In this document: piece by piece, positions 5,159-26,696 of the stretch
How positions within the stretch are numbered: the first letter of the stretch is position 1
Layout: every line of letters begins with the position of its first letter
NCBI RefSeq assembly: GCF_000020025.1
Contig: NC_010631.1
Coordinates: forward strand, 60,001 to 92,000
Reading direction: 5' to 3'
Source of the DNA: Nostoc punctiforme PCC 73102
GTDB taxonomy: Bacteria; Cyanobacteriota; Cyanobacteriia; Cyanobacteriales; Nostocaceae
DNA length: 32,000 nt
Program-made: the position numbers and the translations under genes
Notes under the pieces: generated by a model
The model's database searches: none
The model's input: only the letters and a program-made list of their open reading frames with translations
Told to the model about the DNA's origin: nothing

Positions 5159-5208
5159 GTTCACGTGTCATCTAGGTAAACTCGGACTGTACACGCTTAT
5201 TAAATCGT

Positions 5209-6254: not shown

Positions 6255-6383
6255 CACCCCGTAGCAATTCCAGCATCAATCATCTTCGCCAGACATTGAG
6301 TATTAAATATCCTCAGTGATGACGCGAATCGCTGAAAATACCCATACTGCATAGCTGCGAAAATTGCACCCCGTAGCAATTCC
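6255..6383 (+). repeat. Two copies of the 17-bp direct repeat caccccgtagcaattcc (6255..6271 and 6367..6383)
   Basis: Exact 17/17 identity, 112 nt start-to-start. Both lie immediately upstream of, or overlapping the longest-ORF 5' end of, the tyrosine recombinase gene. Confidence 0.7.
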
Positions 6384-6438
6384 TGTCCCGTGGACTGGGA
6401 TAATAAGAACAGGGCGGGGTGTTGATGGGACAGCAACC

Positions 6439-7101: not shown

Positions 7102-7203
7102 CCCCATTTTACCAAAAAATCGATTTAGCAAAGCAGCATCAGCACAATTGCTGAAAGCAAAAGTAGAAATTACTTCAATGATGCGGTTAGTTATGACGAA
7201 AGT

Positions 7204-10200: not shown

Positions 10201-10677
10201 TGGATTGAGTTGATCCAGCAAGCGCAATGCTAAAAGCGAATGATAGCGCTTAATTAAATAACGCTTTGCAACTTTGCCCCAGATGGGGTTAGCGACATCA
10301 AAGTAGGTAACGCGGTTGGCTGTCTTAGGTGGTGACTCGTATTTAACTGGTTTACAGGAGTGCCAATCAAAGCGCGGGAAGTTCGGCTTAATCCGCCCCC
10401 AATCCATCGGTTGCCAGTTTTTGAATGGGTCAAGTGATTGAATCCACGTCCCACCCAGTAATAGGTGCTGATACATTTTGATGTATCCATCTGTTACCCG
10501 ACCCGCATTCTTGCGTGGGATTTTATCAGATATGAACAGGAAATCATAAACTGATTCTCCCTCTACATGGAAAAAGTTGCGCTTAATCAACGCCGGATGA
10601 ATGGCGCTACCAGCTAACAACTCATGGTATTCCGCTGCCGTGAGGTTGTTTGGGTATTCAATTGTCGCTGAATTCAT
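7204..10677 (-). CDS. Plasmid replication protein, CyRepA-like: N-terminal DUF3854/Toprim-type primase domain + P-loop helicase domain
   Basis: Toprim-like IILCEGEKKAACLL and GVDDFVV, then Walker A VVLWSDMGTGKTE and Walker B CIFIDEACQYL. The 1157-aa size and domain order match the cyanobacterial CyRepA family as I remember it. Confidence 0.8.
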   Translation of the reverse strand: MNSATIEYPNNLTAAEYHELLAGSAIHPALIKRNFFHVEGESVYDFLFISDKIPRKNAGRVTDGYIKMYQHLLLGGTWIQSLDPFKNWQPMDWGRIKPNFPRFDWHSCKPVKYESPPKTANRVTYFDVANPIWGKVAKRYLIKRYHSLLALRLLDQLNPLIFWEWVRQHPEIPIILCEGEKKAACLLSLGFVAIALPGIWNGRVGKQDFDERLHPDLVPMAQAGRKFIILFDYETKLKTRWSVFQATVRTAKAIEAVGCTCEVALLPGPEKGVDDFVVARGEDANALLTAIIDDAKSLADYQRSYRAKKWGLSKYKPDVTVNIKYLTQALCIPDLEEKCSSVPPLYDISQEQLFTPCVSSTSCGQGEGKQELTDSSSFNPKPSTQNPKKSFRFPEKGLVVLWSDMGTGKTELMRWWRDQNPHARFLNNGHRVNLLKNLAERLQTAMYSDLGYTGLAQAQALSITIDSLHKLNTQSLSYGCIFIDEACQYLTHLLHSNTCKQHRAAILEVLEYIVYNAPLVVIADAHMDDLTVDFFRSMRPTDEIPYIIKNEWRNGSRTIYWYEGINSSALVAQISAALMQGLKVMVASDSKRFIKKLDKSFTIKCEQSNSDPSHTPQKWRIWSIHSDNSGSEENVAFIKDITNAVKNFDALFTSPSLGTGVDISQYHFDLVFGVFHAVSQTATECAQQLYRYRPKVPFHIWVAKRPPFGYKDTNASKIKERSLQTNEMTAFLLRIDRKTGSRGAEKDWALEAYCQIMANRHYSLNNLRDDLRSLLTEMGNTFIYVGSDSDPQSLESLKAAAQALDSAHNSAVAKAKNITLSEYRARQSKDYLDPNEIFECEKFRISDSYGIEVTESLVEMDKGGRLIRAIAGLEAILAPPEESFTDPKTGQTYPTPPTIVTQKDRTERDNLPLCIDWGNYSARWLARFNLGLHQILTSLVAGDEVTADDSTLLKMTEIAIHCAAHVKAILGFTIPLDCKPIWLLATLVEQLGLKLTFRKQGKRGQQVKLFSLSKEELEFAMHVIAHRETKRNQKENRTSYAAQTPAAYNVNPNQQAVSTPPPNAIGNSHCQGEDTTEFESPQTDRITLLHCVEILRSGISRGVDAIKGILKRWVEDLRWETVLELEAIAANELRLVESLVPEFYSLLSEEVLPMEFS

Positions 10678-10898
10678 CGGTTCTCCCCTCGGGATTCCTT
10701 AGAGAAAACTCTTTCAAGCTGCGAAACTCTTGCTCTAGCCTGGACATTCCGAAAATTTCCCTTCGTCACAGCACAAAATTGCCGTGCGAAAGCTGCACTC
10801 GACCCCATGCGCTCTAACACTGCGCTCTTGGGGCGTTCTCTATTTGTCATGATATCTTCCCCTGATAACTCGGTTGACAAGTTCAGAGGGGGTTGCAT
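10674..10898 (-). CDS. Small ORF translationally coupled (ATGA overlap) to the replication gene
   Basis: Its stop TGA overlaps the rep ATG (plus-strand tcat at 10674..10677). ATG at 10898, with an alternative ATG at 10850 (MTNRERPKSAVLERM...). No recognisable motif. Confidence 0.5.
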   Translation of the reverse strand: MQPPLNLSTELSGEDIMTNRERPKSAVLERMGSSAAFARQFCAVTKGNFRNVQARARVSQLERVFSKESRGENR

Positions 10899-10945
10899 CA
10901 GTTATCAGTTATCTAATCTTGGACTCTACTCCCAACTGATAACTG
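10899..10945. promoter_or_regulatory. 12-bp inverted repeat (cagttatcagtt / aactgataactg, 23-nt spacer) abutting the start codon of the rep-operon leader ORF
   Basis: Perfect 12/12 complementarity between 10899..10910 and 10934..10945. The core AGTTATC/GATAACT recurs again at 10863..10870. Confidence 0.5.
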
Positions 10946-11701
10946 GTAACTATTATTCGCGCTACTACTGCTTTTAACTACAAAATTCGGGATATTTCTT
11001 AACCAAACTTAACTTTACCTAAAATTTATGAATTTCGACAGCAAAAACACACCGCAGGGAATGGACTTTCCAGGCGGCAGACCCTATAATGGATCTGGTA
11101 GCGCGGTAAAAACTCTCGGACAATTTAGTAGTCGCACCAGTGGCCAAACTTTAGCGACAACTTCTTTTGTTCCTTCGAGATCAAACCCGCTCTAGATCAA
11201 TATGAAATTTGCAATACGTAGAAAGCGCGACTCCTTAGTGGCGCTTTCTGCATTAAACAGTCGTACTGTTGTATCTTCACCTCCATGCCTCCTTTCAATT
11301 AGCTTGATTTTACAGAAGTTCTGGTCGTCTTACTCGGTCGAGGTAAGAGCTTTCATTCAAATGTATTCGCAGAAGATACTTGGTTTAGGTTAAGATACCT
11401 AAACACAAGCTTTTCAAAACAAACCCATTGAATTAATCAGTGATCAAAAATACCCGCAGGCGGTGTTCCTTGGTTGACGTTGGTCAACTTCTTTCACACT
11501 TTTATGCTCAAGCTAGACCGGATAATGTACTAGAGATGCGTTAAATCTCCCTATTAAGATGTAGCATTTAAATCAATATAGCCTAGAAAGGTAATTTGAG
11601 AACCTAGCTTCAGTTAATAATTGTGAATTTTGTAGATATTTTAAGTACTAAGGAGTAAAATTTAACTTCATGTATACCTACTTACGTAAGGAAAAGTCGG
11701 C

Positions 11702-13144
11702 ATGAATTCAAGCCAAGTTTTAGACGTAAAAAGAGTATTAGCTGTATTAGAAGAACAAGTATTTCAATCTACGGGAAGGTATTTAACAGAAGTAGAAAAA
11801 GTTCTTATTAAGGGAGTTTGGGATAGTAAAGATTATAAAGAGATGGCAAGTGATTCGGGGTATAACGCATACTATTTGCAGCAGAAAGTAGCTCCACCAC
11901 TATGGAGTATGCTTTCAGTAATTATTGGTGATGGAGTGAAAGTAACAAAAATATCTTTGAAATCTATTTTGCTTAAGCTAGCAAAGAGCGATTATCGGAA
12001 GGAAGAGGCATCCAGATTGGATAACGATAGTTTCGTTGGCAATATTAGAATTCATGGGGAACTACCTAAAATAAAATCTTTTTATGGACGAAAGGATGAA
12101 ATTAACTATTTTAAGAAACAAATTACTCTATTTAAAGAACGCTGTATAGTTTTTACTGGAGTTGGAGGAATAGGAAAAACTTTATTAGCCTCTAGATTGG
12201 TTGAAGAAATAACTTTTGATTCTTTAAGTAGTATATATGAATGTATAATCTGGAAAACAATTAATCATTCTTTGTCAATTGATGAGTTAGTCATTGATTT
12301 AAATAAAATTTTTCAAGTAGACATAGAAGCAAGTGAAAACTCTTTTATAGATAGCATATCTTTACTATCAAAACAGCTTCACTTACATCGTTGTCTACTA
12401 GTAATTGATGGATTTGAAAAGCTATTGTTAGCCGATGATTTTGGAAAAAGATTACAATATGAAAAATTCCTTTTAAAACTTACAGAAGGGAAGCATGAAA
12501 GCTGCATTATTATAACAAGTCAGTTGCCTTTAAAAGAATTTGCTTCTGTGACTACAAAACTACCTATTCGCTCTTTCAAATTAGAAGGTTTAGATGTAAA
12601 CGCTGGAATGCAAATATTACAAGAAAAAGGTTTAACTGGACAGGAATGTAAGCGATTAATTGAAAATTACTCTGGGAATCCATCAAGTTTAGAAGCGTTG
12701 GCTGATAGAATTAATCGTTTTTTTGAGGGGAGTGTGAAAACATTTTTTAGATATCAAACTACTATGATTGATCCTCAACTTGAAACAATGCTACATCAGC
12801 AATTTGGACAAATTGGACTTTTAAGTAATCTTCAAAGGCAAATAATGATTTATTTGGCAGAAGAAATGTCAGAAAACTCGACTCCTATTCAATTCTCTAA
12901 ACTCATTGATAATTTAAAAGAGCGAGTAGATTTCAAGTTGTCAGTTTTTGAACTAATAACAGCAATAGAAGTTTTAGAACAACGCTCGTTAATTGAAATT
13001 GCTGGTAAATCAAACAAACGAGAAGCTAGTTATAGTTTACAAGTATCTATTAAGAAGTATATTTTAGTTGATCCATTGGGATTAGTGCATAAAATACCAG
13101 ATACAATACAAACAAGGGAAGTTACCTTGTGGGCTACTGCATAA
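11702..13144 (+). CDS. STAND-class P-loop NTPase (NB-ARC/NACHT-like) with the N-terminal HTH-like module common in cyanobacterial STAND proteins; no sensor repeats
   Basis: The N-terminus LTEVEKVLIKGVWDSKDYKEMASDSGYNAYYLQQKVAPPLWSMLSVIIGDGVKVTKISLKSIL matches the module seen at the front of many Nostoc NACHT/NB-ARC/WD40 proteins. Walker A FTGVGGIGKTLL, Walker B CLLVIDGFEKLL, and a winged-helix-like C-terminal part. Confidence 0.8.
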   Translation: MNSSQVLDVKRVLAVLEEQVFQSTGRYLTEVEKVLIKGVWDSKDYKEMASDSGYNAYYLQQKVAPPLWSMLSVIIGDGVKVTKISLKSILLKLAKSDYRKEEASRLDNDSFVGNIRIHGELPKIKSFYGRKDEINYFKKQITLFKERCIVFTGVGGIGKTLLASRLVEEITFDSLSSIYECIIWKTINHSLSIDELVIDLNKIFQVDIEASENSFIDSISLLSKQLHLHRCLLVIDGFEKLLLADDFGKRLQYEKFLLKLTEGKHESCIIITSQLPLKEFASVTTKLPIRSFKLEGLDVNAGMQILQEKGLTGQECKRLIENYSGNPSSLEALADRINRFFEGSVKTFFRYQTTMIDPQLETMLHQQFGQIGLLSNLQRQIMIYLAEEMSENSTPIQFSKLIDNLKERVDFKLSVFELITAIEVLEQRSLIEIAGKSNKREASYSLQVSIKKYILVDPLGLVHKIPDTIQTREVTLWATA

Positions 13145-15087
13145 ATCCTCTTTGTACCCAACGTTATAATCCTGATAGCGCTGAAAATTGTTTAGCATGT
13201 GGAAATCCATTGATAATAAACGGGCGTATTCGTTTGCTACGCCCGTTGCGTTCCTTGGAGCAAAATCCATATACTTACACAGATGTCTTTGAAATTGAGG
13301 ATATTGGCACAGAAGAACATCCTCAGCCTCAAATAAGAGTAATGAAAGTATTAAGATGGATTGATGATTCTAAGTTAGTTGAGCTACTTAAAAGAGAATC
13401 ACTCATATTACAAATCTTAGACCATCCTGGAATTCCCAAGTCTAATAGGGAAGATTATTTCACATTTAGGCTGAATGATAATCTTCTAGAACTACATTGT
13501 CTAGTTATGCATAAGTTTGAAGGAGAGAATTTAACTCAGTGGGTACAATCTTATGGACGAATTAGCCAAGAAATGGCTTATGAATGGTTATTGCAGTTGA
13601 TGGAGATTCTTGATTTAGTTCATCGGTCTGGTTTCTTCCACAGAGATATCAAACCAGAAAACATTGTTCATCAACCCGACGGGAATTTAGCACTTGTTGA
13701 TTTTGGTGGAGCAAGACAGCTTAGTAGAACCTACTTTGCCAAAGTCAGTACCAGTGGAGGAACTACTACAGGATTCGGTAATGGTTACGAAATAACTGCT
13801 GTTAGGACAGCTTGTTACTCTCCCTTAGAGCAAATTCATGGACAAGCCGTACCACAGTCAGACTTTTACGCTTTAGGTAGAACTTTTGTTTACTTAGTCA
13901 CAGGTATTTCTTTAATTGAAATCATAATGGACGAGCAGACAGGAAGACTAATTTGGAGAGATAAAGCACTTCACATAGATAAATTTCTGGCTGATTTACT
14001 TGATGATATGATGGCTCCTTTTGTTGGGCAGCGCCCACAAAGTACTCAAATAATAATACAGCGTTTGGAGCGCTTACCTAATCAATCAAAGTTTAATCGA
14101 GTAATTAAATCAAAGCCGTTTCAACTGAGTGTGTTTGTATTAGGTTTATTAAGTATTGTTGGTTTGATATATGCATCCCTACCTCTAGTAGCAAAATATT
14201 ATTTAGATTCCGGTAAAAAAGCTTATAAAGAAAATCAAATTGACCAAGCTGAGAACGATTTTCAAAAAGCAGTATATTTGAATACTAGCTTAAAATACAC
14301 AGTAGCAGATTATTTTTTAAATCAAGGTAAAGAAGCTTATAAAGAAAATAGGATTGCTGATGCTGAAAAAGACTTTCAAAGAGCAATAAAGTATGGACAT
14401 AATTTAAATAATTCAGTCTCAATTTTTTACTTTGAGAAGGGTTTACAGCATCAAAATAACCCTAAAATTGCTAGAAAAAATTACGAGCTAGCTATAAAGT
14501 ACAACCCGAAAGACGATACTGCGTATAATAATTTAGCAATTGCGTGTCAGCAGTTATATGACTATAATTGTGTTAACAAAACTTACGAAATAATTTTTAA
14601 GTTAAAACCTAATAAATGGGAATCGCATTACGGATTAGGTGATTTTTATGATGAACAGGGAGAATATGATTTAGCAGAAAAGCAATATGAAATTGCTATT
14701 AGAAGTAGCGATCAAGCTATATTTGCTGTTGCGGCTTTAGCAAGATTGAAAAATAAAAAAGGGGATCATACAGCAGCAGCTACTTTAGCTTTAAAAGGTT
14801 TGCAGAAAACTAACAATCGGGAATTACAAGCATCCCTGTATAAAGATTTAGGATGGGCAAGGTTAATGGAAAATAAGTTAACTGAAGCCGAAAGATATCT
14901 AGAAAAAGCAACAAAGTTAGATAGCGAAAGAACAGATGCATATTGTTTGCTATCTCAAATAGAAGAATCATTAGGTCAACTTAATTACGCCAGAGCTTAT
15001 ATAGATGCTTGTATCTTGACTAAATCTAGCCTACCAGAAGTGTTTCGCTGGAGACAAGAACTGCTAGATCGGATACTTGATAAATGA
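13129..15087 (+). CDS. Ser/Thr protein kinase with N-terminal 4-Cys zinc ribbon, one TM helix and a C-terminal TPR region
   Basis: CINPLC...CLACG zinc ribbon. Kinase motifs RVMKVL (Lys), HRDIKPEN, VDFGGAR and YSPLEQ. TM helix FQLSVFVLGLLSIVGLIYASLPLV, followed by ~290 aa of TPR-like repeats. The GTG start at 13129 overlaps the upstream stop by 16 nt. Confidence 0.9.
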   Translation: MGYCINPLCTQRYNPDSAENCLACGNPLIINGRIRLLRPLRSLEQNPYTYTDVFEIEDIGTEEHPQPQIRVMKVLRWIDDSKLVELLKRESLILQILDHPGIPKSNREDYFTFRLNDNLLELHCLVMHKFEGENLTQWVQSYGRISQEMAYEWLLQLMEILDLVHRSGFFHRDIKPENIVHQPDGNLALVDFGGARQLSRTYFAKVSTSGGTTTGFGNGYEITAVRTACYSPLEQIHGQAVPQSDFYALGRTFVYLVTGISLIEIIMDEQTGRLIWRDKALHIDKFLADLLDDMMAPFVGQRPQSTQIIIQRLERLPNQSKFNRVIKSKPFQLSVFVLGLLSIVGLIYASLPLVAKYYLDSGKKAYKENQIDQAENDFQKAVYLNTSLKYTVADYFLNQGKEAYKENRIADAEKDFQRAIKYGHNLNNSVSIFYFEKGLQHQNNPKIARKNYELAIKYNPKDDTAYNNLAIACQQLYDYNCVNKTYEIIFKLKPNKWESHYGLGDFYDEQGEYDLAEKQYEIAIRSSDQAIFAVAALARLKNKKGDHTAAATLALKGLQKTNNRELQASLYKDLGWARLMENKLTEAERYLEKATKLDSERTDAYCLLSQIEESLGQLNYARAYIDACILTKSSLPEVFRWRQELLDRILDK

Positions 15088-15120
15088 TAAGATGCTCAAA
15101 CAAATTATGTTTGTAAAACA

Positions 15121-16125
15121 ATGAAAAAGCTGATGTTTTTTGGGGGAATGTGCTGTTTAACTTCTCTAATACTAATTCATCTACCATTGCTAGCAAATGT
15201 ACCGCTCATAAGAGTAAGAAGAAATCAGGTTCATTGTGATCCACAAATGGGAAGAATAATAAGTAAGGGTCACAAGCACTTGTCAGCAGGGAGCTTAATT
15301 TGTAAGGGAGATACGATAGAAGTTGTGAATGGTGATTATGTAGAATTTTTATGCTTTAGTTCTGGAAACATTTTAAATTTATCTAGTGGAACTATTCCTC
15401 TTGATAAATGTGCAGAACCTGACGAAGCCTTATCCACTTGCAATCCAACCAATACTAATGCGTGTCACATACGAAAAGGTGGCACAGAAGGGAGCGATGA
15501 GCCAACAATCATTTCTCCTTATAGCACATCAACATTGAATTCCCGTCCAGAAATAACTTGGACTGCTGTTAAGGGTGCTACTTCTTACAAAGTCAAAGTA
15601 AAAAGTTACGAGTTTGGATGGGAAAAAGTTGTAAATCAAACTCGGCTTGCCTACCCAAGTGATGAAAAAGAATTTCAGCCGGGTACTCCATATACAATAG
15701 ATGTCTTTGCATATATTGATGGTCAAGCTTTTAGCTATGATGAAACGTTTGTGGACGTATTGTCTGTAGCAAAGCAAGAACAAATTGCACAAAAGATTAA
15801 ACGCATCAAAGACTTAGGGCTACCTCCAGATGAAACTATTCTTGACGTAGATGCTATTTATACGGCAGAAAATCTTTTAAATGAAACAATTGAGATGTTA
15901 AAAATGGCAACAGCAACTAATAGCCAAAATCCGACTCTTTACAGAGTACTGGGCGATCGCTATCTCTTGGCCAAGTTGCCAAAGGAGGCGAAATCCGAAT
16001 ACATCAAGGCATCTGAGTTAGCGAAAAGCAGCAATAATTCCAAAGAGTTCCAAAAAGCCCAATCAGGGCTACAAGTAGTGGAATTTTACAACCAGCTTCC
16101 AACCAGGAGGAACCCACCCCAATAA
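15121..16125 (+). CDS. Secreted Cys-rich protein with a DUF928-like/FN3-like beta domain and a TPR-like C-terminus
   Basis: Hydrophobic N-terminal signal MKKLMFFGGMCCLTSLILIHLPLLA and seven Cys in the next ~100 aa. The segment RKGGTEG...IISPYS..RPEITWTAVKGATSYKVKVKS...FQPGTPYTIDVFAY...AIYTAENLLNE parallels the DUF928 layout as I recall it. The C-terminus is TPR-like (YRVLGDRYLLAKLPKEAKSEYIKASEL). Confidence 0.6.
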   Translation: MKKLMFFGGMCCLTSLILIHLPLLANVPLIRVRRNQVHCDPQMGRIISKGHKHLSAGSLICKGDTIEVVNGDYVEFLCFSSGNILNLSSGTIPLDKCAEPDEALSTCNPTNTNACHIRKGGTEGSDEPTIISPYSTSTLNSRPEITWTAVKGATSYKVKVKSYEFGWEKVVNQTRLAYPSDEKEFQPGTPYTIDVFAYIDGQAFSYDETFVDVLSVAKQEQIAQKIKRIKDLGLPPDETILDVDAIYTAENLLNETIEMLKMATATNSQNPTLYRVLGDRYLLAKLPKEAKSEYIKASELAKSSNNSKEFQKAQSGLQVVEFYNQLPTRRNPPQ

Positions 16126-18590
16126 TAAGCCTTCTTATATTTAGGATTTGACAGTAAACTTAATTGCGCCTGACGTAGTGCTTCTGCTTTTGGCAAGCCA
16201 TTGTTCAAACCTTTATAAAATTCTTGCATAAGCAAAGCGGTAGAATCGGCATCCACGCGCCACAAAGTAGCAACAGTACTACGCGCTCCAGCTTGTGCAG
16301 CCATTCCTGCAATACCCATTGCTGACTGCTTGTTGCCTTTAGCTGTTTCGCAGGCGCTGAGAACAAGTAACTCAATTGCATCTTGACTATTTTCAGTTTT
16401 ACCTCTGATTAAGCTGTCAAAGTCTCTAATATTAATTAGCTTGTCATAGGCAACCAGTACTGTTTTGAGTGGGTCAGAACTAAATTGACCGTGGGTAGTA
16501 ATATGTACAATAGGAAAATTATTTTGAGTTAGTTCTTCTTTAAACCTTTTAAGGGTAAACTTCTTGTCTAACAAGGCAACTGACGATTTAGTTTGTTTTT
16601 CTACATTTTCTATTTCTTGTTTAGATGGGAGCAAATTCTCCATATTTTTAGGTGCATTTGGATCTATAGAACTGGGGCTTAGTTTTGATAGTCCAGCTAT
16701 TAAAGCTATCATCTGGTTTTCATGTAAGACTCTAGGTTGTCTAATTCTGGAACCTAAAGTTTCTGCAATACTGTAACGCTCTATTAAATAATGTTTTCCA
16801 TCATATAACAATGCCATTGGTATGCTTTGGAAAGATTTATCTAAAGTGAATACGAGTGTTCCTGATAGGGGTAGATATGTTTTTATTGGTGCAATTAGCT
16901 TTTCATAAATTACTTGAGAAGAAGTAGTAATGCTACTTTCGCCTACTTCAGAAAAATTTTCATTTTGTAAAGCTTCTAAAAGATGATCTATCTGGAATCG
17001 AACTAGTTTAGATTCAATAGAATGGTGGTGAAGTGAGCCATCTGTTGACTGAGCAATTACTTCTATAGTATCCCCTAAATCAATAATGTGAATTACTGTT
17101 GGGGCGCTCTTGAGGTTCTGAAGCTGATTCAAAGCAACAAGGTCAAGCTTGCCACATCTGAGAAAGTTTTCTAAGCGTGCTATCTGCAATCCTTCATTTA
17201 TCTCTATTACTCTTTTTAAATCAGGATTAGGTGATGTTAAGAGTAATCGCATATAATTACGATATGTCGGCTCCATTTCTGACTGAAAAGAGAACTGCAA
17301 ATCTCCGTTAGTTGACAAAAGACTATCACGCACTTCAGTCATGTTTGCGATCGCAGCATTATAGTTCTGAATCGCTAACTCAGTTTTTCCCTGCTTTTGG
17401 TAAATTAGTCCTAACTGCTGCTGCCATTCGTAAGCAATATCCGAAGCCCGAATTGATTGAGCGAATCCTAAAGCCTTCGTAAAATATGCCTGTTTTTGTT
17501 CTGTTTGAGTTGATACTTTACCCAAAGTACCAAAACTATAGGATAACCATCGGATACTATTAATAGTTTCAGCCATTTTCAATGCTAATTTAGCATATCG
17601 AATCGCTACTGATTTCAATTGTTCATCTGGGATCTGGCTGAGGTTATTAGCAAAATTCAACCGAGCATGAATAGATGGCTCAAGTGATAACTCCAAAAAG
17701 GCAGAAGAATTGCCATCTATTTGATTTACCAATGCTCTAATTTGTTGATTAACTTTCTGATGGATGTTCGCTTGATTTGGTTGATGACTGAGCCATTTTT
17801 CCCAACTGATCAGTAAAGTTAAGTGATTCAACTGAGCTTGCAGTTTAGCTGATTTTGAGATATTTGGGATGTTTTCTAGTGTTTGGTAATACCAGAGTGA
17901 TTTTTGCGCTTTTTGTGGAATAATGTTAGCAATCTGCTCTCGAAAAAGTGGTTCCTCTATCCAAGAATATTTATCTTGTAATTGCTGATAAATTGTCTGT
18001 TCAATATTACCTAGAGACAGATAAATCCCACTAATCTTTGATGAAGATACAAGTTTTGCTAGCGTTAACGTTTCTTGTAGAACTGTTTCAGATTCATTTA
18101 ACTTTCCCAAAATCCGCAAGACTTCTCCGAGATTCTGTAATCCAAGTAAGTTAACCGATGTTGCTTCCTGCTTACCAATTAATGTCGTGAGTTGCTCTTT
18201 TTGAGTAAGAGCAGGTTGCTGCAAAGTCGTGTCGCAAATACCTAGAATTGTATTAAAGTTTAAAGCTTCTAAAAGTGTATTGCAAGCTTGTTTATGTAAT
18301 CCTAATGCTTGAAAAGCAAGGTTTTGATTAATCAGGCTTTCCGTAATTCCCTCTTGGTCGTTTAGTTGGCGATATATTTTGGTAGATTCCTGCCAAGTTT
18401 TTAAAGCTTCATTCGCCTGATCTAGAGCTAATTGTTCGTGACCTGATGAAGTCAGGGATGCCGCTTGATTTTTGAGAAATTCTTTTTCTTTTTTTACAGT
18501 CTGGGCAGGGGAAGAGGATTGAATTAAAATTAAAGACAGCCCTAGAATGCCTGAGAAAAGATATTTAAAGCAACATTGAAGTGAGATCAT
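16086..18590 (-). CDS. Secreted TPR + CHAT domain (caspase-fold) protease
   Basis: Signal peptide MISLQCCFKYLFSGILGLSLILIQSSSPAQ, N-terminal TPR-like helices, and a CHAT His/Cys dyad VHITTHGQF and LVLSACETAKG with the YYWGGFLLVG tail. Starts 12 nt after the upstream gene's stop. Confidence 0.9.
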   Translation of the reverse strand: MISLQCCFKYLFSGILGLSLILIQSSSPAQTVKKEKEFLKNQAASLTSSGHEQLALDQANEALKTWQESTKIYRQLNDQEGITESLINQNLAFQALGLHKQACNTLLEALNFNTILGICDTTLQQPALTQKEQLTTLIGKQEATSVNLLGLQNLGEVLRILGKLNESETVLQETLTLAKLVSSSKISGIYLSLGNIEQTIYQQLQDKYSWIEEPLFREQIANIIPQKAQKSLWYYQTLENIPNISKSAKLQAQLNHLTLLISWEKWLSHQPNQANIHQKVNQQIRALVNQIDGNSSAFLELSLEPSIHARLNFANNLSQIPDEQLKSVAIRYAKLALKMAETINSIRWLSYSFGTLGKVSTQTEQKQAYFTKALGFAQSIRASDIAYEWQQQLGLIYQKQGKTELAIQNYNAAIANMTEVRDSLLSTNGDLQFSFQSEMEPTYRNYMRLLLTSPNPDLKRVIEINEGLQIARLENFLRCGKLDLVALNQLQNLKSAPTVIHIIDLGDTIEVIAQSTDGSLHHHSIESKLVRFQIDHLLEALQNENFSEVGESSITTSSQVIYEKLIAPIKTYLPLSGTLVFTLDKSFQSIPMALLYDGKHYLIERYSIAETLGSRIRQPRVLHENQMIALIAGLSKLSPSSIDPNAPKNMENLLPSKQEIENVEKQTKSSVALLDKKFTLKRFKEELTQNNFPIVHITTHGQFSSDPLKTVLVAYDKLINIRDFDSLIRGKTENSQDAIELLVLSACETAKGNKQSAMGIAGMAAQAGARSTVATLWRVDADSTALLMQEFYKGLNNGLPKAEALRQAQLSLLSNPKYKKAYYWGGFLLVGSWL

Positions 18591-18602
18591 TTTTATATCT
18601 TT

Positions 18603-20858
18603 TTACCACTGAGATCCTGAAAAACAAGAACTTGCAGACAGTGAAGCATTATCCCAGGTTGGATTTGCTTGGTCTGTTGTCAAAACTAAATTTCCTTGAG
18701 AATCCCGAATCAAAACGTTGGCTTCTATGATTTGTGTAGCTTGGTTACTTCTTAATGATTTTGGATTATGTGAATTATTCAAAGCTGGAACTGGAACAGA
18801 GTTACTTTGCTCAACATTGTTAAACATCAGGTTATTAGGCTTAGATTGGAGATTGCGAGTACTACTAACTCGAAAACTATTTACTTCTGTGCCTGCTCGT
18901 GCCTGACAAACTGGGGTGATTTCAGGAGTTATTGGAATTACTTCTGCTTTTAGTTGAGTAGGGTAAATGTTAGTATCAGCGATGTTATATTTAACAGTAC
19001 CGTTAATTCCGTACTTGGAACTAGCTGTTATTAAGCTATTAAGGGAAAGGAATAGTCCCCTAGCATTAATTGTGATATTCCCACCACGGCCCTCAAAGGC
19101 ATTTGCGGTGATGCTGCTATTTTTTATTGCAACTAAGATATCTGTGTTGATAGTGATGTTGCCGCCGTCGCCATTACCCCCAGCAGTCGCAGTAATGATA
19201 CTGTCACGTAATTGTAAGTCACCAGAGTGTAAGAAAATGTCGCCTCCTTCGCCCTTGGTGCCGCCTTCTGTGCCAGCTGTGATAGTACCTCTGTCTAGAT
19301 TGATACTGTCTGCGTTGATTCGGAGGGTTCCTGCATTTCCTTGTCCTGGCTGAAAGTTGAGATTTTTTGGAATTTTTTCACCACCAATATTTACTCTCCC
19401 ACCATCAGTGACAGTTAATCGTTCTGCTTCGATTGTCAGATTTCCGGCCTTTCCAGTTCCTCCAGTTCGAGCTGATATTCTGCTAGGAGAATTACCAGTT
19501 AATGACTTTCCGGTTACTTGCACTTCTTCGTCAGCAGTTATAGATACGTTGCCTCCCGAACCCTGCCCAAATGTGCCTGATGATATCACTCCTCCAGAGC
19601 GTAGACTTAAGCGCGCAGTTTCAATCTTGATGTTACCGCCAGAACCGGTAGATCCTCGTTGGGCCAAACTTGTTATGGAACTGCCTGCATTCGCTGTTGG
19701 TTTTCGCAGCACTTCTACTGAATCATGAGCTAAGACCTCTATGGAACCAGCATTTCCGAAGCCATACGTACCAGCAGCGATCCCTGCTCCATCCCGGATA
19801 TTTAACCGCCCAGTTTCAATATTGATGTTGCCACCAGATCCGGTAGCTCTTGGGTAAACTAGGCTCGATATACCAGTGTTGAAAAACGAATCAACTTCTG
19901 GTAATCCCACTAGGTTCACTGAATCTGAAGCATTAATTTTCAATGTTCCCCCCGTTCCTGCTCCTAATGTGCTGGACTCAATCTGAGAACCACCGTCTAG
20001 CATTAGCTTCATGGCTTGTATTTGAATATTGCCACCACCATCACCACTGGCATCAACTGCTGCTGCTCCAGACAACTGGATCTCTCCAAAGGCTGAGATG
20101 CCTGAATATCCCAACGTCCAGCCTTTATCTGTAGGAATCAGGTTGACCAAACCCGCTCCAGCCACGCTGCCTAATTCAATCTGTCCCCCTGTTGTTTTAA
20201 GCGTTCCACGTGAGAGTAATATATCACCGCCCACCAAAGCTAAGGTTTGATTTGGCTGCACGCGTAGACCAGAACTAGTATCTATGAGGTCTGAAGTTTT
20301 TCTTATACCTTGACCGTCTCCAAAGACGTGAATATTTCCAGCATTTGTCCCAAATCCTAATCCCACAGGCACGCTCACTGTCAACAGAGGTTCTGCACCA
20401 CTAAGGGGTTTAGCATCGAAGGAGATGCCATCAGCAAATTTAATATTACTAGCAGTAGTGCCGAAGAACGAGCCGCCAATATTCAGTGAAGCATTCGGCC
20501 CAAAAATAATCCCATTGGGATTAATAAGAAATACGTTGGCTATGCCGTTAGCTCGAATTAAACCATCAATATTAGATATTGAGCTACCCGTCACTCTTGT
20601 CAAAATGTTTTGGATGTCTAGGGCATTTTTGAAGTAAACTGTGCTTCCTGTGGGCACAGAAAACTGTCCAAAGCTATGGAACAAATTGCTTCCGAATTGG
20701 GTTCCTCCCGTTATCGCACTGGTATTATTACCCTCTCGTGTGACGCTGGAGTTAACTCTTAGGGTTGCATCGGGAACAATTTGTGCCGCAATTGGCTCCC
20801 AAGGCAATAGACAAAACAAGGTGCTGCCCTTGATAAGCCAGGATAAAGCTTTTGTCAT
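18603..20858 (-). CDS. TpsA-like exoprotein: filamentous-haemagglutinin N-terminal (TPS/haemagg_act) domain + parallel beta-helix repeats
   Basis: Signal peptide, then the TPS motifs NLFHSFGQFSV and FLINPNGIIFGPNASLNIGGSF. Downstream are repeated G-rich units (TGSGGNINIETGRLNIRDGAGI / TGSGGNIKIETARLSLRSGGVI / GRGGNITINARGLFL). Confidence 0.9.
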   Translation of the reverse strand: MTKALSWLIKGSTLFCLLPWEPIAAQIVPDATLRVNSSVTREGNNTSAITGGTQFGSNLFHSFGQFSVPTGSTVYFKNALDIQNILTRVTGSSISNIDGLIRANGIANVFLINPNGIIFGPNASLNIGGSFFGTTASNIKFADGISFDAKPLSGAEPLLTVSVPVGLGFGTNAGNIHVFGDGQGIRKTSDLIDTSSGLRVQPNQTLALVGGDILLSRGTLKTTGGQIELGSVAGAGLVNLIPTDKGWTLGYSGISAFGEIQLSGAAAVDASGDGGGNIQIQAMKLMLDGGSQIESSTLGAGTGGTLKINASDSVNLVGLPEVDSFFNTGISSLVYPRATGSGGNINIETGRLNIRDGAGIAAGTYGFGNAGSIEVLAHDSVEVLRKPTANAGSSITSLAQRGSTGSGGNIKIETARLSLRSGGVISSGTFGQGSGGNVSITADEEVQVTGKSLTGNSPSRISARTGGTGKAGNLTIEAERLTVTDGGRVNIGGEKIPKNLNFQPGQGNAGTLRINADSINLDRGTITAGTEGGTKGEGGDIFLHSGDLQLRDSIITATAGGNGDGGNITINTDILVAIKNSSITANAFEGRGGNITINARGLFLSLNSLITASSKYGINGTVKYNIADTNIYPTQLKAEVIPITPEITPVCQARAGTEVNSFRVSSTRNLQSKPNNLMFNNVEQSNSVPVPALNNSHNPKSLRSNQATQIIEANVLIRDSQGNLVLTTDQANPTWDNASLSASSCFSGSQW

Positions 20859-21099
20859 AAATCATGGTAAAAGTTTCTCGGTTGGTCTCTGAATTATTTT
20901 TAGTACAGACTTGCACCCTGCACCCGAATGATTACCAATTATACAGATTAATAGTAACGGTAGCGTCTTGTCAAATTGGATTGGAGACAGAGGCTTTCCT
21001 CTAGTAGTAAAGCTTTTCTCTAGTAGTAAAACTGTTAATATTTACTAAAATCCGAGCGAAAGTGATCGGGAGTAAAATACGTTTGTGGATTTATCAGTG

Positions 21100-21876
21100 A
21101 TGAACAGAAAACGTAGTGAGTCCTTTAATGAAGTTGCAGAAATCTATGATGCAGCACGCCCTAGTTATCCATCTCAATTGATTGAAGATGTAATTGAGAT
21201 GGCTAATCTTACGGATTCAGCTTCAATTTTAGATATTGGAACCGGGACAGGTAAGGGGACTGTTCCATTTGCTGAAAAGGGCTACGCTATCTACTGTTTA
21301 GAGCCAGGTGAAAGACTTATTGCAATAGCATCTCAAAATATGCGCTTATATCCAAAGGTGATATTTGAGACAGTTACTTTAGAGGATTGGAACTTACGCC
21401 CAAGCGCCTTTGATTTAGCAATATCTGCCCAAGCTTTTCATTGGGTAAATCGTGAAAAAGGGTATCCAAAAGTTGCACAAGCTTTAAAAGAAAAAGGTTA
21501 TATTGCGTTTTTTTGGAATTTCTCTATTTTACCAGATACTTCAATATTTCAGGCGCTCAAAGAAACGTTTCAAAAATATGTACCTACAATATCTAATGCT
21601 AAACCATCCTCAGTTGAATCACTAATAAAAAAAAGAGAAAACTGGATATTAAATAGCTTTTATTTCAAAAACCTAGTGGTCAAAAAATATCCTTGGTCTA
21701 TTAATTATGATGCAGAAGGATATCTAGGTCTTCTGAAAACTCAAACTGCTTATCAAAAATTTACTGGAACTGAAAAGCAGGATTTTTCTGATGCTATTAT
21801 ACAGATATTAAATGCTCACGGAGGATATGTTACTAAACCCTATTTATCGGTTCTTTTCTTTGCTCAAAAAATTTAA
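21100..21876 (+). CDS. Class I SAM-dependent methyltransferase
   Basis: Motif I ILDIGTGTGKGT and a downstream acidic/aromatic pattern (FDLAISAQAFHWV). ATG at 21100 is preferred over GTG at 21085. Confidence 0.85.
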   Translation: MNRKRSESFNEVAEIYDAARPSYPSQLIEDVIEMANLTDSASILDIGTGTGKGTVPFAEKGYAIYCLEPGERLIAIASQNMRLYPKVIFETVTLEDWNLRPSAFDLAISAQAFHWVNREKGYPKVAQALKEKGYIAFFWNFSILPDTSIFQALKETFQKYVPTISNAKPSSVESLIKKRENWILNSFYFKNLVVKKYPWSINYDAEGYLGLLKTQTAYQKFTGTEKQDFSDAIIQILNAHGGYVTKPYLSVLFFAQKI

Positions 21877-26605: not shown

Positions 26606-26696
26606 AGCAGAATTTTTAACTCTTTGAAATTGATAGAAATTAAGTAAGTTCAAGAGAAGTTTATTTTCTTAATAAACTTTGATAAATGGATATATT

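Follow-up and report, generated by a model that had tools for sequence, protein, structure and literature searches.

A Five-gene Cassette on Cyanobacterial Plasmids with the Appearance of an Envelope-spanning Signaling Pathway

The Cassette and Its Plasmid Setting

The window, a stretch of 32,000 nucleotides from Nostoc punctiforme PCC 73102, carries five contiguous genes at 11702–20858, and the ORF listing places each exactly where the first-pass annotation had drawn it. The plus strand encodes a STAND NTPase with HTH and NB-ARC domains (11702–13144, 480 aa), a 4-Cys Ser/Thr kinase with one transmembrane (TM) segment and TPR repeats (13129–15087, 652 aa), and ORF3, an exported FN3-TPR protein (15121–16125, 334 aa); the minus strand encodes an exported TPR-CHAT protease (16086–18590, 834 aa) and a TpsA-like exported β-helix protein, TPS (18603–20858, 751 aa). 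The kinase start and the NTPase stop overlap by 16 nt, and 12 nt separate the TPS stop from the CHAT start downstream; these last two genes thus probably form one operon. The ORF3 and CHAT coding regions converge with a tail-to-tail overlap of 40 nt (16086–16125); their 3′ ends overlap by 26–59 nt in 55 of 81 loci and by exactly 40 nt in 37, Acaryochloris and Leptolyngbya among them. Because the two halves of the cassette are convergent, they represent separate transcription units.

A linked neighbor outside the cassette proper is a plasmid replication gene of the CyRepA1 family on the minus strand (7204–10677), which matches DUF3854 in Pfam (E 1e-43) and whose homologues in relatives are annotated CyRepA1. 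The 1-kb intergenic region between it and the NTPase gene (10678–11701) holds only small ORFs and no Rfam family; the stretch 11000–11330 is kept in other Nostoc plasmids (megablast, 80–88% over query positions 1–327), and the region could have promoter or origin functions. The block, earlier seen as compositionally distinct from its neighbors, is not a single uniform island, the GC content being 0.315 in the NTPase gene, 0.351 in the kinase, 0.389 in ORF3, 0.370 in CHAT, and 0.443 in TPS, with 0.461 in CyRepA1.

The plasmid-type replicon is indeed a plasmid, the region being 98.8% identical over 10 kb to pC052_D of Nostoc sp. C052. Every complete record with the cassette is a plasmid, and ORF3 is found on 52 plasmids in PLSDB. 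CyRepA1 adjoins the cassette in 52 of 53 informative loci; of 37 Nostocaceae plasmids, about 34 have it 4–8 kb away from ORF3. ParB adjoins the cassette in Acaryochloris and in one further locus (L086). There are also CyRepA1 plasmids that have no cassette, and it is therefore not needed for replication. Within the Nostocaceae there is one divergent copy per plasmid, and single strains hold several divergent copies. Since a distinct, divergent copy lies beside the replication or partition genes of each plasmid, the cassette may act for its plasmid and not in general cell physiology; it might, for instance, sense or enforce the status of the envelope or of neighbors in filaments. Such a role is put forward with considerable doubt.

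Domains and Topology of the Five Proteins

Domains were assigned by Pfam and NCBIfam profile searches with cut-offs, and signal peptides and the TM segment by a hydropathy heuristic and reading of the sequences as opposed to a trained predictor. The NTPase consists of an N-terminal HTH (about residues 1–105, window 11702–12016), an NB-ARC domain (32.5 bits, cut-off 23.5, E 7e-8), a helical domain, and a winged helix; MCM4_WHD was also matched in Pfam. Family PF26355 (HTH_VMAP-M9) is precomputed on P0053, which is 99% identical to the NTPase; the helices of the AF2 model (pLDDT 84) are compatible with a tri-helical HTH, and the best PDB sequence matches of this domain, weak at E 0.33, are the LuxR-type HTHs of response regulators. 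The domain is predicted to be a LuxR/sigma-r4-like HTH. Gly153, Gly156, Gly158, and Lys159 of Walker A and Asp236 of Walker B are invariant among homologues, and the top Foldseek matches of the model are plant NLR resistosomes, Apaf-1, CED-4, and ORC/Cdc6. However, NLRs have an effector or adaptor domain at the N terminus, whereas the NTPase has an HTH in that slot, and no C-terminal sensor repeats were found in it by Pfam search or in the AF2 model. By the hydropathy heuristic and sequence reading the protein has no hydrophobic N terminus, in agreement with its earlier assignment as lacking a signal peptide.

The kinase has a 4-Cys zinc-ribbon-like prefix (4Cys_prefix_kin of NCBIfam, 30.3 bits, cut-off 24), a Hanks-type kinase domain (Pkinase, 70.2 bits, cut-off 31.7), a single TM-like segment at about residues 330–360 (window ∼14116–14209), and about 290 aa of TPR, for which several Pfam families score above cut-off. 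This arrangement, already proposed from the sequence, recurs in homologues by the hydropathy heuristic, the full-length ones having a single TM-like segment at 316–337. The TPR domain is predicted to face the periplasm, with the catalytic domain inside; the latter looks active, the VMK, HRDxKPxN, DFG, and PxE motifs being kept in 38 homologues. It should be noted that alr7232 is the only cassette member that appears in a kinase catalogue and that in PCC 7120 a TnpB insertion with no known phenotype splits the kinase gene.

ORF3 has a signal peptide, a small Cys-rich β domain, an FN3-like sandwich (residues 130–213), and three TPR-like repeats (residues 216–325), and six cysteines (Cys39, Cys61, Cys78, Cys97, Cys107, and Cys115) are invariant. 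Its AF2 model (pLDDT 82) matches the C-terminal domain of MtxA (4z29, E 1e-6), FN3 domains, and TPR chaperones of the SycD/IpgC type in Foldseek searches. ORF3 had been described as DUF928-like, which is not borne out by sequence; there is no Pfam match even at E = 10, hhalign against a true DUF928 protein gave a probability of 0.5%, and the correspondence to DUF928 is one of position only. With no NCBIfam or PADLOC family either, ORF3 is a new, previously unnamed FN3 + TPR family, which has 205 clusters at E ≤ 1e-30.

The CHAT protein has a signal peptide, a TPR-like region of about 500 aa (TPR_12 and TPR_1 in Pfam), and a caspase-fold CHAT domain with a His/Cys dyad (residues 557–832, window 16095–16922; 176 bits, E 1e-51). 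Alignment of 32 nonredundant homologues shows conserved H..TH[GA] and LSAC[QE]T motifs, with SGC for SAC in one of them, and most of the 32 have signal-like N termini by the hydropathy heuristic. In the TPS protein a signal peptide is followed by a TPS secretion domain (residues 25–280, with an NPNGI motif; 218 bits, E 3e-64 in Pfam; adhes_NPXG in NCBIfam) and a Gly-rich β-helix passenger, the part of the cassette that diverges most. The protein ends in a motif, Cys...[IV][IV]EA-x-G...L-x-A...Cys (window ∼18666–18737), that is present in 32 of 32 homologues and also in TpsA proteins of Planktothrix, Pseudanabaena, and Calothrix. A TpsB outer membrane transporter is the sixth gene in many relatives, often between CHAT and TPS; no TpsB gene is present in the window, and the transporter must therefore be supplied in trans.

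All of the Pfam assignments proposed earlier pass threshold apart from that of ORF3, including those of the NTPase and kinase, whose catalytic motifs are conserved. As anticipated, ORF3, CHAT, and TPS start with segments that resemble signal peptides and end in A-x-[QNS] sites, and the same topology pattern of the five proteins is found by the hydropathy heuristic in 32–38 nonredundant homologues. The predicted topology is, with good confidence, correct.

The TpsA/TpsB pair, its location on a plasmid next to maintenance genes, and the strong diversification of TpsA might suggest contact-dependent inhibition or a polymorphic toxin, in which TpsA would deliver a toxin to neighbors, the other proteins would act in processing, immunity, and regulation, and the plasmid would be stabilized by killing cells that lose it. 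Contact-dependent inhibition loci can stabilize mobile elements. However, the cassette TpsA is short (751–898 aa) and has a variable passenger and a conserved C terminus, the opposite of CdiA; Pfam search and sequence reading revealed no recognizable toxin domain or VENN-type demarcation in it, and the gene that follows it is CHAT and not a small immunity gene. Toxin delivery is therefore highly improbable.

Conservation and Linkage of the Genes

A scan of 185,579 species genomes anchored on the NTPase gave 79 loci, in which the partners were present in 75 of 75 (kinase), 70 of 73 (ORF3), 61 of 64 (CHAT), and 54 of 54 (TPS). The three exceptional loci are disrupted; two of them (L037 and L077) have transposase genes right behind the kinase gene, and the third (L021) has a truncated kinase match. 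Look-ups anchored on ORF3 recovered the set in a Chroococcidiopsidales MAG, Halotia, pREB6 of Acaryochloris, a plasmid of Leptolyngbya boryana, a Fischerella plasmid, and pCC7120alpha, with identities down to 24–46% in relatives that include Acaryochloris, Leptolyngbya, and Fischerella. Thus the trio on the plus strand and the pair on the minus strand, which the first-pass annotation had joined in one system, co-occur almost without exception from either anchor, three other cyanobacterial orders included. Absence of this co-occurrence, of the TM segment and signal peptides, or of significant HMM matches for the NTPase and kinase domains had been named beforehand as refuting the system; none of these was found, the TM segment and signal peptides being judged by the hydropathy heuristic.

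The set survives inversion of the NTPase gene (type B loci, n = 37), placement of TpsB between CHAT and TPS, and insertion of IS elements or integrases; divergent copies show inversions and TpsB insertions with catalytic residues and topology conserved. In type B loci the NTPase and kinase genes are transcribed divergently, with a conserved inverted repeat between them; no shared operator was found in type A promoters. One locus (L002) has the NTPase at 93% but CHAT at 57%, another (L005) CHAT at 91% but the NTPase at 54%, and in a third (L008) the TPS passenger alone is swapped. Extensive recombination therefore reshuffles the parts, and the partners need not all be strictly co-adapted pair by pair.

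It could be argued that there is no functional link and that the NTPase-kinase-ORF3 and TPS-CHAT halves were co-inherited in a slow-changing backbone beside the replication gene of one lineage: most loci are on Nostocaceae plasmids whose CyRepA1 genes are related at 65–93% identity, the halves are convergent transcription units, and recombination uncouples their sequence histories. Against this, the five or six genes are together without an adjacent CyRepA1 in Acaryochloris, Leptolyngbya, and Fischerella (a Rep homologue is 127 kb away), and the set persists despite internal inversions and insertions. The cassette proteins also diverge (35–55%) more than Rep, yet the genes are intact with their catalytic residues, and sibling clusters, described below, rebuild the same layout from nonhomologous parts. 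Such co-inheritance without a functional link is largely refuted already and has only the slightest probability, and it is very likely that the five genes are functionally linked.

Sibling Clusters and the Proposed Pathway

A cluster in Planktothrix (p1), with TPS, TpsB, and CHAT on one side and DUF928, AAA_35-CHASE2, and AAA_35 on the other, has the layout of the cassette, and its AAA_35 NTPase has an N-terminal HTH in common with the cassette NTPase (hhalign 98.6%, E 6e-16). In pC052_D itself and in Anabaena cylindrica, DUF928, CHASE2, DUF1822, and ECF sigma genes lie next to CHAT and TPS; in pCC7120alpha they lie by a TPS gene only, CHAT not being annotated and an IS being nearby. A Pseudanabaena sibling has a CHASE2-histidine kinase. 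In these clusters CHASE2 sensors replace the kinase-TPR protein and an ECF sigma factor or HTH-AAA_35 protein replaces the HTH-NTPase, while the layout is kept. This interchangeable filling of the membrane-sensor and cytoplasmic DNA-binding slots points to signaling with a transcriptional output, and the CHASE2 membrane sensors in the kinase slot support the earlier proposal that the kinase links two compartments.

These comparisons bear on another reading, in which TPS-CHAT is an ordinary operon for a secreted adhesin or exoprotein, CHAT serves as maturation protease, and kinase and HTH-NTPase are a dedicated local regulator pair; ORF3 would then be an accessory periplasmic protein, the cytoplasmic genes would only tune expression, and nothing would be sensed by way of the exported proteins. 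The 12-nt spacing of TPS and CHAT in one operon and the frequent position of TpsB between them are as expected from it, as are the divergent type B genes with their inverted repeat, and maturation of TpsA by a dedicated protease is known for FhaB (PMC4542190). However, the kinase retains a large conserved TPR domain, predicted to be periplasmic, the kinase slot of the siblings is always filled by an extracytoplasmic sensor protein (CHASE2), which is hard to explain without periplasmic sensing, and ORF3 or DUF928 always lies between the sensor gene and CHAT; confinement to plasmids, one copy each, is also left unexplained. The adhesin operon is rather improbable.

The same components could instead form a conflict or abortive-infection system, in which the NTPase or kinase senses phage or a foreign plasmid and raises an inside-out or bidirectional alarm, exported CHAT and TpsA serving as effectors at the envelope by which the cell is killed or isolated, as in the NTP-dependent cell-death systems that multicellular bacteria have. 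Predicted conflict systems typically contain STAND, caspase-fold, and kinase parts (PMC7159879; PMC8195603), and an immunity function has been proposed for the EACC2-caspase/ECF-sigma triad of sibling clusters (PMC8195603). The cassette is carried by plasmids in multiple diversifying copies, has a hypervariable surface part, and is near further caspase-fold genes; PADLOC PD-T4-6 models, which are generic kinase profiles, match the kinase (E 1e-89). However, the NTPase lacks sensor repeats and matches PADLOC models at noise level (VakA, E 7e-4), ORF3, CHAT, and TPS have no PADLOC model, the location is a plasmid backbone by the rep gene and not a defense island, and the HTH at the N terminus of the NTPase, together with a sigma factor there in siblings, argues for transcription rather than killing. 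A conflict system is considered unlikely.

The reading preferred here, held with modest confidence, is that the five genes constitute one envelope-spanning signaling unit. No description of the cassette was found in the searchable literature; it looks like a pathway that starts at the cell surface, passes through a caspase-like protease and a membrane kinase, and ends at an NLR-like cytoplasmic switch protein, and its genes stay together on dozens of plasmids of cyanobacteria. From the arrangement of the parts we infer the direction of signaling and the substrates of the protease and kinase. A TpsB supplied in trans would present the exported TpsA-like protein at the outer membrane, and the CHAT protease and the ORF3 adaptor would be exported to the periplasm, where three TPR modules may read the state of the surface protein, the Cys-bracketed C-terminal motif of TPS being the best candidate for a periplasmic handle. 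CHAT would turn this reading into a cleavage event, the kinase ectodomain would sense the cleavage product or a freed partner, and the kinase would then phosphorylate the HTH-NB-ARC protein, which may switch by nucleotide-dependent oligomerization and so change transcription. This specific route, outside-in through CHAT proteolysis to a transcriptional output, is proposed tentatively, at a little under even probability. There are precedents for its steps: the C-terminal prodomain of FhaB is retained in the periplasm and undergoes regulated degradation (PMC4542190), and caspase autoprocessing has been predicted to be the signal in EACC2-caspase-CHASE2 systems with ECF sigma and DUF1822 (PMC8195603).

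It should also be noted that exported caspase-fold proteases are not unusual in the Nostoc host, three further ones being present in the same window.

Gene Content and Predicted Topology

The cassette comprises five open reading frames, each at exactly the position that the first-pass annotation had assigned to it. ORF1 (11702-13144, plus strand) encodes an NTPase of 480 residues with an NB-ARC match above threshold and a winged-helix match, and ORF2 (13129-15087, plus strand) a kinase of 652 residues that combines an N-terminal 4-Cys prefix and a Hanks kinase domain with several TPR families above threshold. ORF3 (15121-16125, plus strand; 334 residues) cannot be assigned to a family of Pfam, NCBIfam, or PADLOC, even at E = 10. 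On the minus strand, ORF4 (16086-18590; 834 residues) encodes a TPR and CHAT protein (CHAT E value 1e-51) and ORF5 (18603-20858; 751 residues) a TPS protein with a TPS secretion domain (E value 3e-64) and an NPNG adhesin signature. Profile searches above thresholds thus uphold four of the five labels first proposed, those of the NTPase, kinase, CHAT, and TPS proteins. The NTPase and kinase genes share a 16-nt overlap, by which they appear to be translationally coupled; the gap from kinase to ORF3 is 33 nt, and the TPS stop lies 12 nt from the CHAT start. The gene directly upstream of the cassette (7204-10677, minus strand) contains DUF3854, and its relatives are annotated as CyRepA1-family plasmid replication proteins. 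The description of the block as compositionally distinct holds for four cassette genes, with GC contents of 0.32-0.39, but not for the TPS gene (0.44), which is close to this replication gene (0.46).

A hydropathy scan and a reading of the translations are both consistent with the trans-envelope topology proposed for the five proteins, with which the predicted TM segment and the signal-like N termini agree; the N terminus of the NTPase is not hydrophobic, as expected of a protein said to lack a signal peptide. The single TM segment of the kinase and the signal-like N termini of the ORF3, CHAT, and TPS proteins are conserved in 32-38 non-redundant homologues, outgroups included. When compared with the defense models of PADLOC-DB 2.0, the ORF3, CHAT, and TPS proteins have no match and the NTPase matches at noise level, so that the cassette does not appear to correspond to the components of any one known anti-phage system in that database. 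We file the cassette as a TPS-linked kinase/STAND version of sensor-plus-regulator conflict/signaling systems. A role in defense or conflict is itself unlikely. PADLOC recognizes the kinase alone and does so through generic PD-T4-6 kinase models.

The NTPase and the Kinase

The NTPase scores 32.5 bits against NB-ARC (PF00931; cut-off 23.5) and also matches MCM4_WHD in Pfam. Gly153, Gly156, Gly158, and Lys159 of Walker A and Asp236 of Walker B are invariant, and both motifs are kept in 32 homologues. The top Foldseek matches of its AF2 model (pLDDT 84) are plant NLR resistosomes, Apaf-1, and CED-4 (E values 1e-11 to 1e-9), which, with the profile match and motifs, places the protein in the NB-ARC/AP-ATPase STAND clade with a predicted NBD-HD1-WHD fold. 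Neither profiles nor the model reveal C-terminal sensor repeats (TPR, WD40, or LRR), and the chain ends past the winged helix at residue 480; TPR are present in more distant relatives of 770-820 residues. Residues 1 to ∼105 are helical in the AF2 model. The Pfam family HTH_VMAP-M9, whose model is missing from the local Pfam copy, is precomputed on a database protein 99% identical to the NTPase, and the best PDB sequence matches of the HTH profile are the LuxR-type HTH of response regulators, a weak similarity (E 0.33). An hhalign comparison of the NTPase family with a "sigma-70 family" protein of pC052_D, a near-identical plasmid of Nostoc sp. C052, found nothing, so that the HTH cannot be shown to be a sigma region 4. 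NTPase relatives at ≤30% identity (Okeania, Roseofilum, and others) lie in other gene contexts, so they do not extend the system. It should also be noted that one metagenome contig (L092, 5602-9235) has an NB-ARC gene and, directly behind it, a gene for a Ser/Thr kinase to which a periplasmic-binding-protein domain (Peripla_BP_6/ANF_receptor) is fused; this may be the same NTPase-kinase dyad with a different ectodomain and without TPS and CHAT.

ORF2 scores 70.2 bits against the Pkinase profile (threshold 31.7), and its motifs VMK, HRDIKPEN (HRDxKPxN), DFG, and SPLE (PxE) are kept in 38 homologues, features that identify it as a putative Hanks-type Ser/Thr kinase. The profile match begins at model position 28, and by reading, the sequence upstream has no clear GxGxxG. 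One TM-like segment is predicted at ∼330-360, followed by ∼290 residues of TPR. On pCC7120alpha of PCC 7120 (245494-248706), the kinase gene is split by a TnpB/IS element into a 50-residue fragment with the 4-Cys prefix and alr7232, and PCC 7120 is therefore probably a natural mutant for the cassette kinase.

The Putative Exported Proteins

The labeling of ORF3 as DUF928-like has no sequence support: DUF928 (PF06051) gives no match even at E = 10, and hhalign against a DUF928 protein returns a probability of 0.5%, so that ORF3 is a positional analogue of DUF928 only. In its AlphaFold model (pLDDT 82), a small β domain with six invariant cysteines is accompanied by a separate sandwich of the FN3 type and by three repeats resembling TPR; Foldseek matches are the MtxA C-terminal domain, FN3 domains, and peptide-binding TPR chaperones of the SycD/IpgC type. 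A first search gave 52 clusters, all cyanobacterial, and an exhaustive profile search 205 clusters at 50% identity (E ≤ 1e-30), a number that indicates a genuine family, so far without a name.

ORF4 scores 176 bits against the CHAT profile and also contains TPR, and the motifs HITTHG (His) and LSACET (Cys) are kept across 32 homologues; profile and dyad together identify it as a putative caspase-fold protease of the CHAT type. Among the matches listed in the CHAT homologue search, only members of the family at ≥50% identity were found, and no outgroup contexts. ORF5 scores 218 bits against PF05860 and 91 bits against TIGR01901, and its translation reads LINPNGIIFG, so that it has the features of a predicted TpsA, an N-terminal TPS domain with NPNG(I) behind a predicted signal peptide. 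The β-helix passenger is the most variable portion of the cassette, and a C-terminal motif, Cys...[IV][IV]EAQGW-x5-G-x-[IV]-x-L-x-A...Cys, is common to all TPS proteins compared. The window and the near-identical plasmid both lack a TpsB gene (POTRA and ShlB barrel); one lies within or near the cassette in many relatives. Beyond the TPS gene, the sub-lineage of the window (14 loci) has a class I SAM methyltransferase gene (21085-21876, plus strand), and other sub-lineages have a glycosyltransferase or FkbM methyltransferase gene at the same site; these genes might serve modification of the exported protein.

Linkage and Gene Order across Genomes

Six Nostoc plasmids picked by DNA similarity all have the same five genes beside CyRepA1. 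Their NTPases were aligned and searched for in one genome per species (185,579 species), which gave 79 loci, nearly all in Nostocaceae and often as several divergent copies per genome. The window proteins were mapped onto these loci, a locus being informative for a partner where the contig is long enough. The kinase was present in 75 of 75 informative loci, ORF3 in 70 of 73, CHAT in 61 of 64, TPS in 54 of 54, and CyRepA1 in 52 of 53, and the co-occurrence of the plus-strand trio with the minus-strand pair, set beforehand as a test of the proposal, is borne out by the counts for the four cassette partners. The three loci without ORF3 and CHAT, at which NTPase identity is 36-41%, are all disrupted, two (L037 and L077) having transposase genes straight after the kinase gene and the third (L021) a truncated kinase match. 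Two gene orders occur, the NTPase gene being either co-directional with the kinase gene, as in the window (type A), or inverted (type B; 37 loci), and in a sub-variant a TpsB gene of the ShlB/FhaC type lies between CHAT and TPS.

When the linkage test was repeated from ORF3, the least generic of the proteins, all three of the distant family members looked up were in the same gene set. A tblastn search of PLSDB locates ORF3 on 34 plasmids of Nostoc, 7 of Acaryochloris, 6 of Leptolyngbya, 2 of Trichormus, and a single one each of Halotia, Nodularia, and Fischerella, 52 in total. The order on pREB6 of Acaryochloris marina is ParB, ParB / NB-ARC, kinase, ORF3 / CHAT, TpsB, TPS; the full set is also on Leptolyngbya boryana plasmid 1 and, with an integrase inserted within it, on Fischerella NIES-4106 plasmid 2, and the set on pCC7120alpha has the split kinase gene. 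The proteins of outgroup plasmids are 24-46% identical to those of the window. Retention of the set at such identities, over four orders and despite inversions and insertions, argues that the five genes are very probably a functional unit and not a neighborhood accident.

Sibling Clusters

Plasmid searches for TpsB and DUF928, that is, for CHAT and TPS outside the cassette family, revealed clusters with the same layout and other parts. On Planktothrix agardhii p1, TPS, TpsB, and CHAT genes are followed by convergent genes for a DUF928 protein, an AAA_35-CHASE2 membrane protein, and an AAA_35 NTPase, the layout of the window with different parts in three slots; the N-terminal HTH domain of this NTPase is common to that of the window (hhalign 98.6%, E 6e-16). 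In a Pseudanabaena cluster, the sensor slot holds a CHASE2-histidine kinase. Elsewhere on pC052_D (3710-19763, with a TPS protein of 1681 residues) and on Anabaena cylindrica pANACY.04, genes for sigma-70/ECF-family, DUF1822, caspase-CHASE2, and DUF928 proteins converge on CHAT and TPS. The same sigma/DUF1822/caspase-CHASE2/DUF928 set lies beside a TPS gene on pCC7120alpha, where CHAT is not annotated and an IS element is nearby. A sibling-system sigma factor resembles the NCBIfam III-E sigma model weakly, below cutoff (29.6 bits; cutoff 100).

The recurring plan, as predicted from these sequences, has an exported part, consisting of TpsA (plus TpsB), a TPR-CHAT protein, and a small β-rich protein, and an inner part, consisting of a membrane protein with an extracytoplasmic sensor and a variable cytoplasmic signaling domain, together with a cytoplasmic protein of DNA-binding or transcription type. 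A constant TPS-CHAT core combined with sensors and outputs that can be exchanged is the pattern expected of a signaling pathway. The cytoplasmic triad of the sibling clusters, EACC2-caspase, ECF sigma, and DUF1822, is present in all three designated L103-L105 and matches systems for which signaling to a sigma factor through autoprocessing of the caspase has been predicted (Kaur et al. 2021, eLife 10:e70394, PMC8195603), a paper in which TPS, exported CHAT, and DUF928 partners do not occur. The sibling clusters tie these predicted "conflict" systems to TPS, CHAT, and DUF928 genes, which suggests that the EACC2/ECF-sigma systems also own an overlooked extracytoplasmic half.

Plasmid Backbone and Recombination

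The assignment of the block to a plasmid-type replicon is confirmed by the 98.8% identity over 10 kb between the cassette region and pC052_D. All complete records with the cassette are plasmids. The distance to CyRepA1 is 4-8 kb in about 34 of the 37 Nostocaceae plasmids, and in Acaryochloris and one further locus (L086), the cassette adjoins ParB genes. Several divergent intact copies may be present on separate plasmids of a single strain, as with the four of Nostoc sp. C052. The cassette is part of the plasmid backbone. It is not a replication factor, since CyRepA1 plasmids without it occur, mostly small ones and those of other genera. The plasmid-only records, the proximity to CyRepA1 or ParB, and the multiple divergent copies suggest that it serves the plasmid; surveillance or recognition as the form of this service is possible and is put forward tentatively. 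One locus (L102, 6531420-6553924) with the cassette, CyRepA1, and integrase fragments lies inside an 8.33-Mb JGI contig, and is either a chromosomally integrated plasmid or an assembly join. The non-coding segment at 11000-11330 recurs at 80-88% identity, unannotated, on three other Nostoc plasmids; it contains only small ORFs, has no Rfam match, and might be an origin or copy-control sequence.

Identities to the window are discordant within single loci. In L002, the NTPase is 93% and the kinase 89% identical, but ORF3 is 51% and CHAT 57%; in L005, CHAT is 91% and the NTPase 54% identical. Sliding-window DNA comparison places breakpoints at ∼14400 in the region of the kinase ectodomain, where the window resembles a left half of the L002 type joined to a right half of the type of another locus, L040; at ∼15500 within ORF3; and at ∼19000 within TPS, where L008 has an exchanged passenger and the C-terminal ∼150 residues remain with CHAT. 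The cassette therefore diversifies through recombination, most strongly in its surface-exposed part, and the resulting mosaic makes it less likely that all partners are strictly co-adapted one to one. A mirror-tree analysis of partner co-evolution is confounded by recombination and physical linkage, and only the breakpoints are reported.

The convergent 3' ends of ORF3 and CHAT overlap by 26-59 nt in 55 of 81 loci among L001-L097 (16086-16125 in the window), by exactly 40 nt in 37 of the 55, Acaryochloris and Leptolyngbya included. The terminal parts of the two transcripts must thus be mutually antisense, which could couple expression of the two genes. In type-B loci (L046-L083), the divergent kinase-NTPase intergenic region has a conserved block with GAAATTTNTAT and the inverted repeat AGTAAC-N19-GNTACT. 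In 20 non-redundant loci this block precedes the NTPase start by ∼200 nt, and it could be an operator or promoter. An operator shared by all cassettes upstream of the NTPase gene was rejected: the repeat occurs in type B only, type-A upstream regions, that of the window included, did not align, and the search revealed nothing convincingly similar ahead of the NTPase gene of the window. There is no Rfam match in the whole window, and a promoter and terminator scan, in which promoter-like sites were fewer than in shuffles, does not define transcription units.

Comparison with Described Systems

All domains of the cassette are already known, and the closest described systems share parts or logic only. 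With two-partner secretion (type Vb; Bordetella FhaB/FhaC) it has in common the TPS domain, NPNGI motif, and β-helix passenger, as well as the ShlB/FhaC-type TpsB embedded in or near many of its relatives. The C-terminal prodomain of FhaB is periplasmic and proteolytically controlled (PMC4542190), and the conserved C-terminal region of the cassette TPS protein could likewise stay in the periplasm under proteolytic control. However, the cassette TpsA is much shorter than FhaB, the window is without TpsB, and the partner protease is a caspase-fold TPR-CHAT protein. The cassette pair is also tied to a membrane kinase, a STAND NTPase, and an FN3-TPR protein, which to our knowledge are in no described TPS system. 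A role as a regulated adhesin is improbable. The contact-dependent inhibition model CdiA/CdiB/CdiI was rejected: the TPS C terminus is conserved and the passenger variable, there is no toxin domain, and the next gene encodes CHAT, not an immunity protein.

The EACC2-caspase systems (Kaur et al. 2021) are related through the sibling clusters, in which their triad lies beside DUF928, CHAT, and TPS on the same plasmid family in the gene order of the cassette; the shared logic is that of a membrane protein with an extracytoplasmic sensor and a cytoplasmic transcription-type output. In the cassette of the window, however, a Ser/Thr kinase-TPR protein and an HTH-NB-ARC NTPase take the place of the three proteins that define those systems, none of which (EACC2-caspase, ECF sigma, DUF1822) was detected there in profile searches. 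FecA-FecR-FecI cell-surface signaling connects a component in the outer membrane, by way of an inner-membrane transducer that has a periplasmic domain, to a DNA-binding output in the cytoplasm. The three-compartment relay proposed here for the cassette is alike in logic only, and the output of sibling clusters is an ECF sigma; unlike the Fec system, the five cassette proteins include no TonB-dependent transducer, anti-sigma factor, or ECF sigma domain detectable with Pfam and NCBIfam profiles. In AfsK-AfsR of Streptomyces, a Hanks kinase phosphorylates a STAND-family transcription regulator, AfsR, whose DNA-binding domain is of the SARP type and whose TPR are C-terminal. In the cassette, the genes for a eukaryote-like Ser/Thr kinase and for a predicted DNA-binding NB-ARC/STAND protein are likewise paired, but the HTH is of the VMAP-M9 type, the TPR are on the kinase and predicted to lie outside the membrane, and phosphorylation is a supposition.

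In Craspase (type III-E CRISPR), the TPR-CHAT protein Csx29 cleaves Csx30, controlling an RpoE-like sigma factor. HetF is reported to act as a protease on PatU3 (PMC9457339). Both are precedents for TPR-CHAT as a specific signaling protease upstream of transcription or development, but these proteases are cytoplasmic, whereas the cassette CHAT protein has a predicted signal peptide and TPS partners, and there are no CRISPR components. With CED-4, Apaf-1, and plant NLR, the cassette shares the NTPase fold and genetic linkage to a caspase-fold protease, and CED-4 and the cassette NTPase are both without sensor repeats. The N-terminal domain of the cassette NTPase is, however, an HTH rather than CARD, CC, or TIR, and because the predicted topology puts the caspase-fold partner across the membrane, direct apoptosome-style activation would be excluded. 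Full-text searches of literature outside subscription journals, which included the gene set, PCC 7120 locus tags, and DUF928/CHASE2/CHAT/TPS, found no description of the cassette; the only mention of alr7232 found is as a TPR kinase entry in a 2007 catalogue, and Kaur et al. 2020 (PMC7159879) do not mention hemagglutinin, two-partner, or secreted components.

Proposed Mechanism and Role

From the observed gene content, conservation, catalytic motifs, and folds, and from the predicted topology, we infer a relay in which TpsA would be displayed at the outer membrane, its conserved disulfide-bracketed C-terminal motif being reachable in the periplasm like the FhaB prodomain (PMC4542190). The TPR modules of the kinase ectodomain, ORF3, and the CHAT N terminus, all three in the periplasm, would bind this motif or one another, and a change at the surface would license cleavage by CHAT. 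The kinase ectodomain would register the cleavage, and the kinase would phosphorylate the HTH-NB-ARC protein, which may oligomerize upon nucleotide exchange and alter transcription. The relay could also run in the reverse direction, cytoplasmic sensing controlling the exported proteins.

If this signaling reading, outside-in or inside-out, is correct, the cassette and its TpsB would be a conserved six-part bacterial system joining a type Vb pair, a periplasmic caspase-fold protease, a eukaryote-like kinase, and an NLR-type switch; no study covering this combination of NB-ARC, caspase fold, and Hanks kinase was found. Most large Nostocaceae plasmids, many of which coexist in a cell, have this block in their backbone, and the reading would provide a first candidate for its function. 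A new kind of plasmid function is a possible reading. In its most specific form, each large cyanobacterial plasmid would have its own envelope-spanning surveillance device that monitors, and perhaps enforces, the presence of itself or its kin in neighboring cells of a periplasm-sharing filament, a hypervariable surface TpsA and the periplasmic caspase-like protease reporting by way of the membrane kinase to the NLR-like HTH switch that adjoins the replication genes; we regard this as rather doubtful. Were surveillance nevertheless the role, the cassette would represent a new sort of plasmid-addiction or kin-recognition mechanism, in which a bacterial NLR would be connected with a caspase-fold protease outside the cell. 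Genetic tests are feasible, since the PCC 7120 copy has a disrupted kinase and intact copies are on sequenced plasmids of related Nostoc and Acaryochloris.

Other Genes of the Window

A RecD2-like helicase gene at 437-4083 (plus strand) is apparently interrupted: an HHH_RecD2 fragment (437-988) and the RecD2-like helicase core (2458-4083) flank a DDE_Tnp_ISAZ013 transposase split into two ORFs (1041-1637 and 1694-2272), all on the plus strand. Three further caspase-fold genes lie in tandem on the minus strand (24422-26653, 26697-29213, and 29322-31823), encoding a peptidase C14 and DUF4384 protein with a Tat-like (twin-arginine) N-terminal KRRHFIQF and two CHAT proteins with signal-peptide-like N termini. 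Exported caspase-fold proteases therefore seem to be common on the plasmid.
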